This document shows positions 36,001 through 42,000 of a DNA stretch of 64,000 nucleotides, piece by piece (positions within the stretch are counted from its first letter, which is position 1; each line of letters opens with the position of its first letter). Source of the stretch: Escherichia coli (GTDB lineage Bacteria > Pseudomonadota > Gammaproteobacteria > Enterobacterales > Enterobacteriaceae); NCBI RefSeq assembly GCF_051903065.1, contig NZ_CP178438.1. One strand, written 5' to 3'. The position numbers are program-made.

Positions 36001-39000
36001 GATGACGGCAGCAGTGGCGAAGTGAGTCTGGTGGGACAACCGCTACATAATATGGACGAAGAAGCGCGGGCAAAGTTGCGCGCGAAGCACGTCGGCTTTG
36101 TTTTTCAGTCATTTATGCTAATTCCTACCCTTAACGCGCTGGAAAACGTCGAGCTTCCGGCGCTGCTGCGCGGTGAGAGTAGCGCGGAAAGTCGTAACGG
36201 AGCGAAAGCGTTGCTCGAACAGTTAGGGCTGGGTAAACGTCTGGATCATCTTCCGGCACAGCTTTCCGGCGGTGAACAGCAACGAGTGGCGCTGGCACGA
36301 GCCTTTAACGGTCGACCTGATGTGCTGTTTGCCGACGAACCCACCGGCAACCTTGACCGCCAGACCGGCGATAAAATTGCCGACCTGCTGTTTTCCCTCA
36401 ACCGTGAGCATGGCACCACGTTGATTATGGTGACCCACGACCTGCAACTGGCGGCACGCTGCGACCGCTGCTTACGGCTGGTGAACGGGCAGTTGCAGGA
36501 GGAAGCATGATTGCACGCTGGTTCTGGCGCGAATGGCGTTCGCCGTCGCTATTAATTGTCTGGCTGGCGCTAAGCCTGGCGGTGGCCTGCGTGCTGGCGC
36601 TGGGCAATATCAGCGATCGCATGGAGAAGGGCTTAAGCCAACAAAGCCGGGAGTTTATGGCGGGCGATCGGGCGTTGCGCAGTTCGCGCGAAGTGCCGCA
36701 AGCATGGCTGGAGGAAGCGCAAAAGCGCGGCCTGAAAGTCGGCAAGCAGCTGACTTTCGCCACCATGACATTTGCAGGCGACACACCGCAGCTGGCGAAC
36801 GTTAAAGCGGTGGATGATATCTACCCGATGTATGGCGATCTGCAAACCAATCCCCCTGGCCTGAAACCGCAGGCGGGCAGCGTATTGCTGGCCCCACGCC
36901 TGATGGCACTGCTTAACCTGAAAACGGGCGACACCATTGACGTGGGCGATGCCACTTTGCGGATTGCCGGAGAAGTGATTCAGGAACCGGATTCCGGTTT
37001 TAACCCCTTCCAGATGGCTCCGCGTCTGATGATGAATCTGGCGGATGTCGATAAAACCGGAGCCGTGCAGCCGGGGAGTCGGGTCACCTGGCGCTATAAA
37101 TTCGGCGGCAGCGAGAACCAGCTCGACAGCTATGAGAAATGGTTGTTACCTCAGCTTAAACCCGAACAACGCTGGTACGGTCTGGAACAGGACGAAGGCG
37201 CGCTGGGGCGATCGATGGAACGCTCGCAACAGTTCCTGCTGCTTTCGGCGCTTCTGACCTTGCTGCTGGCAGTGGCAGCAGTGGCGGTAGCGATGAATCA
37301 TTACTGTCGCAGTCGCTACGATCTGGTGGCGATCCTCAAAACGCTGGGGGCAGGGCGAGCGCAACTGCGTAAGCTAATCGTCGGTCAGTGGTTGATGGTG
37401 CTGACGCTTTCAGCCGTTACCGGTGGGGCGATAGGCCTGTTGTTCGAAAACGTGTTGATGGTGCTGCTCAAGCCCGTTCTGCCTGCTGCACTACCGCCAG
37501 CCAGCCTCTGGCCATGGCTATGGGCGCTGGGCACCATGACGGTCATCTCGCTGCTGGTGGGGCTACGACCATACCGCTTGTTGCTGGCAACGCAGCCTTT
37601 ACGCGTATTACGTAATGATGTGGTAGCGAACGTCTGGCCGCTGAAGTTTTATCTGCCGATTGTCAGTGTGGTGGTTGTGCTGCTGCTCGCCGGATTAATG
37701 GGTGGCAGTATGCTGCTCTGGGCGGTGCTGGCGGGCGCGGTAGTACTGGCTTTGCTGTGCGGTGTGCTGGGCTGGATGCTGCTGAATGTACTTCGCCGCA
37801 TGACGCTGAAATCGCTGCCTCTGCGCCTGGCGGTTAGCCGCCTGTTACGTCAGCCATGGTCAACGTTAAGCCAGCTTTCGGCATTTTCGCTCTCCTTTAT
37901 GCTGCTGGCACTGCTGCTGGTGTTGCGTGGCGATCTGCTCGACCGCTGGCAGCAGCAGCTACCTCCAGAAAGCCCGAACTACTTTTTAATTAACATCGCC
38001 ACAGAACAGGTAGCACCGCTAAAAGCGTTCCTCGCGGAACATCAGATAGTCCCGGAATCGTTTTATCCGGTGGTGCGGGCGAGACTGACGGCGATTAACG
38101 GCAAGCCGACAGAAGGCAATGAAGATGAGGCGCTCAATCGCGAACTCAATCTTACCTGGCAAAATACGCGGCCCGATCATAATCCGATTGTCGCCGGTAA
38201 CTGGCCGCCAAAAGCCGATGAAGTGTCGATGGAAGAGGGGCTGGCGAAACGCTTAAACGTTGCCCTCGGTGATACCGTGACTTTTATGGGCGATACCCAG
38301 GAGTTCCGCGCTAAAGTGACCAGCCTGCGCAAAGTGGACTGGGAAAGTCTGCGGCCTAATTTCTATTTTATTTTCCCTGAAGGGGCATTAGACGGGCAAC
38401 CGCAGAGCTGGCTTACCAGTTTCCGCTGGGAGAATGGCAACGGCATGTTGACGCAACTCAACCGCCAGTTCCCTACCATTAGCCTGTTAGACATTGGCGC
38501 GATTTTAAAACAGGTCGGTCAGGTGCTGGAGCAGGTAAGTCGGGCGCTGGAGGTGATGGTGGTGCTGGTCACCGCCTGCGGTATGTTGCTGTTGCTGGCA
38601 CAGGTGCAGGTGGGAATGCGTCAGCGTCATCAGGAGCTGGTGGTGTGGCGCACACTCGGTGCGGGGAAAAAACTGCTGCGTACCACGTTGTGGTGTGAGT
38701 TCGCCATGCTTGGGTTTGTTTCCGGCCTGGTGGCCGCAATTGGTGCGGAAACGGCACTGGCAGTGTTGCAGGCGAAAGTGTTTGATTTTCCGTGGGAGCC
38801 AGACTGGCGATTGTGGATTGTTCTGCCGTGCAGCGGTGCGCTGCTGCTGTCGCTTTTCGGCAGCTGGCTGGGTGCGCGACTGGTTAAGGGTAAGGCGCTG
38901 TTCAGGCAGTTTGCGGGGTGATGACAGGTGTTAGATTGCCTGATGCGCTACGCTTATCAGGCCTACGAATATCGTGCAATATATTGATTTTGCAATATTT

Positions 39001-42000
39001 TGTAGGCCGGATAAGGCGTTTGCGCCGCATCCGGCAGTTGTGCGGCGGTGCCTGATGCGACGCTGGCGCGTCTTATCATGCCTACAAAACTGCACTCAAC
39101 CGTAGGCCGGATAAGGCGTTTACGCCGCATCCGGCAGTTATGCGCAGATGCCTGATGCGACGCTTTGCGCGTCTTATCATGCCTACAAAACTGAACTTAA
39201 CCGTAGGCCGGATAAGGCGTTTACGCCGCATCTGGCATGAACAGTGTGCATTTTGGCAATAAATATGAAACCAACTGTCATGTCGGTTTTTTTAAAGGCC
39301 GAAGGTGGTAAACCTTCGGCCTTAGCGACGTTTCCTCAGTTATTCAATAAACTGACGGATCAGTTCCAGCAGCGCGATTAGCGCCTTAAGAACGATGAGA
39401 ACTTTATCGAGAAAAGTTTTCATCCGTTGCTCCCTTAAGGGAGAAAGACAATCACAGCTTACCCTTACGTTGCCTGTAACTATGATTTTCTTCATGTGCT
39501 AGATGAGGACTGCCTCTCTCCAAATTAGAGCACCAGAATCAGCACCACCTGTATCCTGACCAGGACTTAAAAGTACTTTTCCGCACTGCGGTAATCCCTT
39601 GAGGCAGTATCACTACTAGCGTCGGGATTGTATCGCCAACATAGCTGTTTGAATATGTAGGCATCCTGACTTATAATTCACTTGCTAGATGAGGACTGTT
39701 TCATTTCTGCCCGGAACCACCAAGTCTTGGGCGGAAAAAATAAAAAAACCGACTGTCATGTCGGTTTTTTTATATCTGTATTCTGGTGCAACCATTCTGT
39801 TCTCACGACAATCGCCGTTTCAGAATACCGCCCATCACTGCGCCTTAACCCATTCCGCCACTTCCGCCCACTCACCGCGAAAGACAACTTTTTCCGCTTT
39901 TTTCTCAAGCTGATAGCGATACATTGGGTCGTAATACTCTTCAAGTAACGGCACCAGCCAGGCCAGATGACCGTCGGTGCTGCCGGTGGTGAGTTGCGTT
40001 GTCAGCGCTGCATCCAGCCTTGCAGCCAGTTCGTTATATCGCTGTAGCCCCAGCCGACGCTTAATAGCCGAAAGTCCGTGATGCAGGTATTCGCAATACT
40101 CCTGCCAGCCCTGTTCGTCGCCGTACGCGTGGGTAAAATCATGATGCATACGCAAGAAATACTCTTCGTTCAGGCGCTCAAGACGGATCTCAAACGGATC
40201 TTCTACCACCGCAATCGCCGCCTGAGTCATTCGCTCGCGCAGGCATTCCGGCAGGTGATTCGAACCGATCATCCGGCTTTCGTCTTCCAGCACCCACAGG
40301 CGCAAATTCTGACGGGCGTCGGTTTTTAGCATTTCGGCAGCCAGCAGGTTTTCAAAACTCGCCTGGCTAAGTTGTGGTTGTAAGGTGCGACCAAACGCCG
40401 AACCGCGATGACGCGCCAACCCTTCCAGATCAACACCGTTCGGCTGTTGCTGCACCAACAGCGTTTTACCGCTGCCGGTACAACCGCCAATCAGCACTAT
40501 CGGTTTTTGTGTCAGTTCAATGGTCGCCTGAATCGCGGTCTGGCGCAGTGCCTTATAACCGCCTTCCACCAGCGGATAATCAATCCCCGCTGCATGCAAC
40601 CAGCTTTGCACAATATGTGAGCGCTGACCGCCACGGGCGCAGCAGAGAATACCTTGCGGATTTTGCAGGCACGCTGCCCGCCAGGCGTCCATACGCTGCT
40701 GACGAATTTCACCCGCCACCAGTTTATGCCCCAGCGCCAGCGCCGCGTCTGAGCCTTGCTGTTTATAGCAGGTGCCAACGGCGGCGCGTTCATCGTTATT
40801 CATTAACGGCAGATTGATAGCGGCGGGCATTGCGCCTTGCTCAAACTCGATAGGGGCGCGAACATCAATAATGGGCGTATCAGCAATCAGCAGGGCACGA
40901 TAGTCCTGTTCCGTGTGTCTCTCTTGCATAGTTAAAAGTGAACCTCAAATCAGCTTGCGCGCTATTTTACGCGCCAACGCGCAAGGAAACTTGATTTTTA
41001 ACTGCGTGGGTTGCCGAAAATTTCTAAAAATCCGCTGATTTCCGGCCTGCGCTGGGTAAACAAGGTCACAATATCTTCTACCGCTTTGCCGCTGCCAAAT
41101 TTGCGCCATGCCAGACTCAATGGCGAAGGAGGGCGCATCGTTGGGATTACCCGGCTGACCAGTTGTTGATTATCGATCATTGACTGGCAAAGCGATTTTG
41201 GCAAAAAACCAATGCCAACGCCCGCCAGATGGGCGGCGATTTTCGTTTCCATATCAGGAACAATAATCTCTTTTTGCCCTGGCAATCGCCAGGCGACGCG
41301 TTTGGTTAAGGTGCGGGCGCTGTCTTCAATATTGACCGCCGGAAAGCGCCGCAACTGCGCTTCTGTTAGCGGCTCTTCAACGTTCGCCAGCGGATGATCC
41401 GCCGCCATGACAAATCGCCATTGCACCGATCCTAAGGGATCAAGACTAAAGGTATTTGCCAGCGCCTCAGTTCCCGTGACGCCGATAGCCAGCGAAAAAC
41501 CTTCGTACAATAGCGAGTCCCAGACGCCCATATAGATTTGTCGGGAGATGTGAAACTGGGTAAAGGGGTAACGCTCATTCAGCCACGCCAGCAACTGGGC
41601 GACGGCCTGGGGGGTGTAGAGCAGGTTGTTGATGACAATATTCACCTGGCGTTCCACGCCATCATTCACCTGTTGCAGCTCGCTTGGCATACTTTCCAGC
41701 CAGCTCAGCCAGTCTCTGGCCTGGGAAAGTAGATGCTCGCCAGCCGCTGTCAACGTCACGCTGCGAGTCGTGCGAAAAAACAGCGCCACTCCGGTATTCT
41801 CTTCCAGAAGTTTAATGCGATAACTGATCGTCGCCGTGGTTTTACATAATCGTTCTGCCGCTTTTGAAAAACTTCCTGTTTCAGCAACCGCAATGAAAGT
41901 CCGCAAGGTTTCTGGATCGAACATCTTCAGGTATCCCCTTTTAAATCCGCAAGTTGCGTGATTTTCTTATCCTCTGATTTATCAGTATTTTTACATGATA

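Follow-up and report, generated by a model that had tools for sequence, protein, structure and literature searches.

The Rhs-free ybbP–selU spacer of an Escherichia coli genome: a REP array and a predicted DinQ/AgrB-family toxin–antitoxin module at a variable site

Organization of the ybbP–selU spacer

A 64,000-nucleotide (64-kb) stretch of Escherichia coli contig NZ_CP178438.1, called the window below, was analysed around the intergenic spacer between ybbP and selU (mnmH), the position at which E. coli K-12 carries the rhsD element. The first-pass annotation had described a gap of ~0.9 kb at this position holding repetitive extragenic palindromic (REP) units and a candidate toxin/small RNA (sRNA) locus. 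This description was borne out, and the exact length of the spacer is 913 bp. The spacer consists of two parts: the left third is a REP/bacterial interspersed mosaic element (BIME) array, and the right two thirds (39251-39820) are a toxin/antisense-RNA module (Table 1). The label 'empty site' that had been given to the interval is therefore a misnomer, as the spacer carries a derived insertion of its own. The chromosome of strain ECNB21-M121 (NZ_CP083585.1) was 100% identical to the interval and its flanks, and the RefSeq annotation of that chromosome agreed with our open reading frame (ORF) calls for ybbP and selU/mnmH.

Table 1. Features of the ybbP–selU region (window coordinates)
Feature	Position	Strand	Description
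ybbP	36507..38921	+	804-amino-acid (aa) ORF, ABC transporter permease; borders the variable site on the left
ybbP–selU intergenic spacer	38922..39834		913 bp, Rhs-free allele, between convergent genes
REP/BIME array	38941..39242		about six REP units in alternating orientation, downstream of ybbP
ES036 (Rfam)	38959-39001	-	above gathering score
101-bp tandem unit	39002-39237		2.3 copies, 92% matches
naRNA4 (Rfam)	39005-39082 and 39105-39183		above gathering score
DinQ-family toxin/sRNA module	39251..39820		570 bp; insertion relative to the REP-only spacer
Left 40-nt direct repeat	39255..39294	+	degenerate copy of the sRNA terminator, bounding the module
G+C-rich hairpin	39295..39323	-	just 3' of the toxin stop codon; inverted repeat I3, 12-nt arms, 100% complementary
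Toxin coding sequence (CDS) MKTFLDKVLIVLKALIALLELIRQFIE	39340..39423	-	27 aa, DinQ-like
Shine-Dalgarno GGGAG	39430..39434	-	6 nt upstream of the ATG; read from the sequence
sRNA target in the 5' untranslated region of the toxin mRNA	39491..39512	-	predicted; 68 nt upstream of the start codon
sRNA sigma-70 promoter	39649..39677	+	predicted; TTGAAT, 17 nt, TATAAT; near-consensus, 10/12 matches
AgrB-like antisense sRNA	39685..39773	+	89 nt; intrinsic terminator 39740-39773
selU / mnmH	39835..40929	-	364-aa ORF, tRNA 2-selenouridine synthase; borders the variable site on the right

The toxin peptide scored 40.9 bits against the NCBIfam model NF041472 (toxin_DinQ), which has a cutoff of 30, and its core was identical to K-12 DinQ at 15 of 19 residues. 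RefSeq also names the gene dinQ. Against the NCBIfam model NF041473 (DqlB) the score was 24.5 bits, which is below the cutoff of 35, indicating that the toxin is not DqlB. An exact look-up found the same 27-aa peptide on at least 1,000 contigs. The sRNA matched the Rfam family RF02891 (AgrB) over its full length (model positions 1-84) with a score of 53.6 bits, compared to a gathering score of 40, and its predicted promoter was the sole promoter-like match returned by a simple scan of the spacer.

The first ~16-22 nt of the sRNA recur at 39491-39512, within the toxin leader. This direct repeat (D2) pairs 39491-39512 with 39677-39698; the two copies are identical at 20 of 22 positions and share a 16-nt perfect core. 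Because the toxin and sRNA genes are divergent, a direct repeat in the DNA corresponds to complementarity between the two RNAs. The predicted sRNA/toxin-leader duplex had an energy of -78.4 kcal/mol compared to -46.7 ± 4.0 kcal/mol for shuffled sequences, none of which reached -78.4 in 500 trials, while the K-12 agrB/dinQ duplex gave -87.0 kcal/mol in the same test. The copies of a second repeat family (D1; 39255-39294 and 39733-39772) are 83% identical. A terminator-like site was also found on the minus strand at 39289-39268, and the toxin mRNA terminator is likely to consist of the I3 hairpin together with this adjacent hairpin (39268-39289).

On the basis of its sequence we assign the module to the DinQ/AgrB family of type I toxin–antitoxin systems. 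The module aligned along its whole length with the dinQ-agrA region of K-12. It resembles the K-12 dinQ–agrAB locus (Weel-Sneve et al. 2013, PMC3567139) in having a 27-aa hydrophobic peptide and a divergent AgrB-type sRNA, in the complementarity between the 5' end of the sRNA and the toxin leader ~70 nt upstream of the start codon, and in DNA homology that runs through the leader, CDS and sRNA. However, the module lies between ybbP and selU, whereas the K-12 locus lies between arsR and gor; it has one sRNA gene rather than two; and its pairing seed is a 16-nt perfect (22-nt imperfect) match, compared to 30/31 in K-12 (PMC3567139). In addition, the module has an ATG start codon (GTG in K-12), a different C-terminus and an additional terminator-like repeat past the toxin gene, and it is without a LexA operator. 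No CTG-N10-CAG was present in 39251-39821 and no CTGT-N8-ACAG with up to one mismatch was present in the spacer, while the control, K-12 dinQ, has CTG-N10-CAG at position 2483 of the extracted K-12 locus. The module is probably not SOS-induced. NZ_CP083585.1 also bears a canonical dinQ between arsR and gor (positions 25886-25969 of the extracted locus), such that the toxin in the window is a second DinQ-family member in the genome. For this second copy the RefSeq name 'damage-inducible toxin DinQ' is probably misleading, given the lack of a LexA operator.

As described by Kristiansen et al. 2016 (PMC5066626), dinQ-like (dql) genes occur on chromosomes and plasmids of Enterobacteriaceae with similar leaders, and some are found alongside dinQ. 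The module fits this description of the family (dqlA/dqlB, 14 dql sequences), including the co-resident dinQ. The name 'dqlA' was not found in the literature outside that paper. Plasmid dqlB loci were 67-77% identical to the module over part of its length, and dqlB-related loci with 60-80% identity to the module were present in 1,641 plasmid records, mostly of conjugative plasmids. By homology with the experimentally studied system (PMC3567139, PMC5066626), a constitutive sRNA would pair through its 5' end with the leader of the processed toxin mRNA, sequester the ribosome-binding site and trigger RNase III cleavage. Pairing would in this way block synthesis of a 27-aa membrane-depolarising peptide, both the toxicity and its neutralisation being predictions.

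The REP/BIME array on the left side of the spacer is typical of such arrays, i.e. it is composed of imperfect palindromes, intergenic and tandem, with a copy number that varies among strains, and nothing about it is unusual. The array is common to the spacers of LF82 and E. albertii, and most other genomes that bear the module are one unit short (92% coverage). Elsewhere in the window, 52823-52957 matched Rfam STnc480 (87.6 bits) and, for a second time, ES036 (38.1 bits), and possibly marks another REP-type intergenic element.

Absence of rhsD and alternative alleles of the site

The K-12 map had been described as placing the rhsD island after ybbP and before selU. This proved correct for NC_000913.3, in which the gene order is ybbP, rhsD, ybbC, ylbH', ybbD', ylbI', ylbG, selU, and the island encodes RhsD together with the Imm-NTF2-2 protein YbbC. 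K-12 does not have an equally short spacer; alignment of the two loci showed that it carries 7,293 bp where the window has 905 bp (38928..39832). The last 2 kb of ybbP is 98.6% identical to K-12. Homology breaks off at 38927, which is 6 bp beyond the ybbP stop codon, and restarts at 39833, at the selU stop codon, with the last SelU codon already differing between the two. K-12 SelU ends in ...WVKAR (position 11633 of the extracted K-12 locus) and the window protein in ...WVKAQ (39835-39840). The K-12 island has not been inserted into the spacer but has replaced it completely. The K-12 junctions retain nothing of the REP array or of the toxin/sRNA module and instead consist of K-12-specific sequences, a 37-bp terminator-like hairpin after ybbP and ~50 bp before selU. 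These junction sequences had no match in the other spacer alleles or in the K-12 rhsE locus, and none in Escherichia, Citrobacter or other outgroup loci with the exception of one contaminant contig.

The claim that no Rhs core or tip fragments lie between ybbP and selU was confirmed by blastn and tblastn, and it holds for the whole 64-kb window. A tblastn search of the window with K-12 RhsD gave a best E-value of 1.3 and nothing significant, and no ORF with a YD-repeat core was present. Searches with K-12 YbbC and YlbG returned chance-level matches only, and the complete 7.3-kb K-12 island, non-coding ends included, gave no match in blastn. Compared to the K-12 RhsD element at the same chromosomal site, the window is without the core, the tip, the immunity gene, the H-repeat/transposase remnant and the non-coding end. 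There is no sign in the window that the lineage ever carried rhsD. The site corresponds to Rhs 'position 3' (ybbA–ybbB), for which variable strain occupancy has been documented (Jackson et al. 2009, PMC2935791). According to that study Rhs at position 3 arose within E. coli after the B2-type split, by duplication from another Rhs locus; earlier Hill-laboratory work on the RhsD element is cited there. We conclude that the absence of Rhs here is ordinary, documented strain-to-strain variation.

The alleles of the site were counted in 5,426 complete E. coli genomes by junction-specific searches. The K-12-type ybbP/Rhs left junction was present in 2,868 genomes, the toxin/sRNA module in 1,332 (1,314 near full length), the junction of an Hcp island in 572 and the REP-only junction in 457. 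The four counts total 5,229, which does not exceed the number of genomes and thus fits one allele per genome. At this site about 47% of the genomes have no K-12-type Rhs junction, and approximately a quarter share the exact arrangement of the window. The 'empty' site is therefore one of at least four common alleles.

In sequence type 131 (ST131) the spacer is occupied by a 4.2-kb island in which a gene for Hcp with a fused Tle1-like phospholipase domain precedes three DUF2931 genes; the island extends from 7926 to 11928 of the extracted locus and is followed by selU at 11980-13086. The immunity protein Tli1 has a DUF2931 domain. The same island was found at the site in E. whittamii and Escherichia sp. 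MOD1-EC7003. Effector islands of this Hcp-ET type, in which Hcp carries a C-terminal toxin (PMC6730261; bioRxiv 10.1101/2024.03.05.583533), are alternative occupants of the spacer in these genomes and are not present in the window. Both effector islands, Rhs and Hcp, terminate at or inside the final selU codons, and ST131 selU encodes 368 aa compared to 364 aa in the window. The REP-only allele is a 240-bp spacer in LF82 and Nissle 1917. Two further forms were deletion derivatives: a 58-bp spacer in N44 that keeps the left end of the Hcp island fused to the right end of the REP-only form, and a window-type spacer with a 98-bp deletion in GMM076. Synteny of ybbP and selU extends to Citrobacter, Kluyvera, Kosakonia and Buttiauxella, in which the spacers range from 65 bp to >4 kb.

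E. albertii has a 248-bp REP-only spacer with the right junction '...GCATGAACAACGCGCAC|AGAATC...', the same as in the B2 strain LF82. In both, '...GCATGAACA.CG.GCAC' is joined straight to 'AGAATC...', and the module is a clean 570-bp insertion relative to this form, flanked by the 40-nt direct repeats. As the REP-only form is common to E. albertii and B2 strains, it is the oldest, and we conclude that the module and the Rhs island are both derived states of an ancestral REP-only spacer. The cryptic-clade Escherichia SCPM-O-B-8794, which is labelled E. coli, has flanks 93% identical to the window and keeps just the two ends of the module with one hairpin between them, the outcome that deletion between the 40-nt direct repeats would produce. 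This scar is 91-96% identical to the window, in step with the 93% identity of the flanks, which suggests that the module has long been resident at the ybbP–selU site.

The most likely explanation for these results, in which we have considerable confidence, is that the interval is one allele of a hypervariable ybbP–selU spacer, consisting of the REP/BIME array followed by the 570-bp DinQ/AgrB module, and that the Rhs island, the Hcp-Tle1 island and the module are mutually exclusive occupants of the spacer. The REP-only spacer came first, and the module, like both type VI effector islands, is a later occupant. The RhsD effector-immunity island fills the whole spacer in K-12 and about half of E. 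coli, with the Hcp-Tle1 effector-immunity island or a bare REP array in other strains. Alleles would be exchanged between lineages through homologous recombination, with ybbP and selU as anchors. Flank identities of 94.9-98.8%, compared to 99.3-99.4% for the module, place the alleles on unlike backgrounds.

Several observations weigh against this explanation. Allele exchange is deduced from discordant divergence rather than from mapped breakpoints, and mutual exclusivity from count sums and a few inspected loci rather than from a per-genome cross-tabulation; moreover, ~200 genomes are unaccounted for by the four alleles. A simple minus-strand scan found no convincing toxin promoter; two candidate -10 elements (TACAAT, GATACT) were picked out by eye alone, and we make no claim for them. 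In addition, the 98-bp deletion of the GMM076 type (39404-39501) was estimated to occur in ~15% of module-bearing genomes (6 of 40 evenly spaced rows). The deleted segment is bordered by GATGAGRACT microhomologies, of which one is located inside the toxin CDS and the other inside the sRNA target. The deletion takes out the toxin start codon and Shine-Dalgarno sequence while leaving the sRNA, giving a toxin-null allele. Its recurrence implies that the toxin is dispensable.

History of the module and of Rhs at the site

Two histories had been offered for the Rhs-free spacer: either the lineage never acquired rhsD, or the sRNA locus is what the Rhs insertion displaced in K-12. The notion of alternative occupants stands, as the K-12 island takes the place of 38928..39832. 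Displacement of the module itself is not provable in K-12, since the K-12-type junctions are without trace of the module or the REP array. That the lineage never acquired rhsD is likewise unproven; no Rhs remnant was found, yet the window flanks are closer to Rhs-bearing K-12 and O157 than to the two other module-bearing genomes compared.

Landing of the Rhs island of K-12-type strains in a module-bearing spacer, with deletion of the module, is possible, and we hold it tentatively at best. The takeover of the whole spacer by the K-12 island, the apparent age of the module at the site judged from the SCPM-O-B-8794 scar, which makes it look older there than Rhs, the reported origin of Rhs at position 3 within E. 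coli (PMC2935791) and the close relation of the window flanks to Rhs-bearing K-12 and O157 are all consistent with such an event. However, the K-12-type junctions keep neither module nor REP sequence, their 37-bp and ~50-bp flanks match no outgroup or rhsE, and the spacer present before insertion could equally have been REP-only. Moreover, the only assembly in which module remnants adjoin Rhs is unique among the 5,426 genomes and resembles an artefact.

That assembly, O157:H7 TR01 (NZ_CP033605.1), was considered as proof of displacement and was rejected. In TR01 the first REP unit precedes the Rhs island, and the last 34 bp of the module follow it. The hybrid junctions, at 4955-4995 and 11000-11035 of the extracted locus, were each found in no other genome of the set, and a normal O157:H7 strain, Z1615, has K-12-type junctions. 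TR01 and Z1615 differ at 2 positions in 6 kb inside the island, whereas divergence is ~1% in ybbA, ybbP, selU and the all genes. Identity inside the island combined with divergence outside it is what a consensus would show if a strain that really has the module allele had been assembled on an O157 reference; a reference-guided consensus artefact is therefore the likely source of the TR01 junctions.

The ybbP and selU flanks of the window were 98.6-98.8% identical to those of Rhs-bearing K-12 and O157, as against 94.9-97.6% for the two other module-bearing genomes compared, GMM076 and Escherichia sp. E1V33. As the flanks are nearer to Rhs-bearing than to module-bearing genomes, alleles appear to shift between backgrounds by recombination, and for this reason the window cannot decide between a lineage that never acquired rhsD and one that lost it by replacement. 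These identities, together with the 99.3-99.4% identity of the module in GMM076 and E1V33, which indicates that cassette and background have different histories, would fit a lineage that once had rhsD and lost it when a module-bearing spacer was imported by recombination in ybbP and selU. We nevertheless consider such a loss unlikely. The 64-kb window contains no Rhs remnant of any kind, and comparison of three or four genomes cannot give the direction of transfer. Furthermore, NZ_CP083585.1 is chuA-positive and carries the chu operon, which places it outside the A and B1 groups, the groups of K-12.

The module was at least 99% identical in 1,259 of the 1,332 genomes that bear it. It was always chromosomal and essentially single-copy, with a median of 1 and a maximum of 2 places per genome. 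Compared to the window, E1V33 had 4 mismatches in the 570-bp module and 26 in the adjacent 500 bp of selU, and GMM076 had 3 mismatches in 472 bp of the module and 19 in the adjacent 500 bp of selU. The identity of 99.3-99.4% in the module, next to only 94.8-98.0% in the neighbouring selU and ybbP, points either to an island of conservation or to recent horizontal spread. Dense functional RNA could explain part of the conservation.

The low divergence of the module relative to selU in E1V33 and GMM076 and its near identity across most bearing genomes raise the question of whether the 570 bp represent a selfish cassette in the course of recent spread, as opposed to a chromosomal locus of long residence. 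The 40-nt direct repeats that bound the module and the related dqlB loci on more than 1,600 mostly conjugative plasmids point in the same direction. We find this doubtful, as the module is always at the same site with the same junctions in essentially one copy, has no integrase or transposase, and left in SCPM-O-B-8794 a scar that diverged in step with its flanks. Near-identical matches in the plasmid collection were limited to 3 records, the one inspected being 1.2 Mb and perhaps a mislabelled chromosome, and the dense functional RNA elements could account for the strong conservation. Still more speculative, and in our opinion quite improbable, is the proposal that a selfish module, ~99.3% identical where the flanking genes differ by 2-5%, recently swept E. 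coli and neighbouring Escherichia lineages at this one site, with post-segregational killing guarding an Rhs-free spacer from type VI effector islands. If this were true, an addiction module and interbacterial-weapon cassettes would be competing for the ybbP–selU site.

Other features and implications of the site

A 600-aa ORF on the minus strand (27876..29678), which has a YadA-like anchor at its C-terminus, resembles an adhesin of the trimeric-autotransporter type (region 27369..30389). It contains two internal direct repeats of 300 nt (28649-28948 and 29018-29317, 94% identical) and is flanked by two smaller ORFs, one of 140 aa that is lipoprotein-like and one of 120 aa. It lies just upstream of ORF 30492..30950, which is probably ybbJ by K-12 gene order. 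In NZ_CP083585.1 a HicAB pair is located between yhhJ and nikR (47878-48509 of the extracted locus); the yhhJ–nikR interval is Rhs position 9 in Jackson et al. 2009 (PMC2935791).

Variable Rhs occupancy (Jackson 2009) and dinQ-like genes (Kristiansen 2016) have been published and the toxin is annotated in RefSeq; the phenomenon as such is already known. What our analysis adds is descriptive: the spectrum of alleles and their frequencies, the ancestral REP-only state, a paralogue of dinQ without a LexA operator, and the warning provided by TR01, a cautionary case of an informative-looking junction that is probably an artefact. The results also confirm that rhsD is accessory, since roughly 47% of complete E. 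coli genomes lack it. With two unrelated type VI effector–immunity islands and a type I toxin–antitoxin module as mutually exclusive occupants of one spacer, the ybbP–selU site is a convenient natural system in which to study how cassettes are replaced through flanking homologous recombination.

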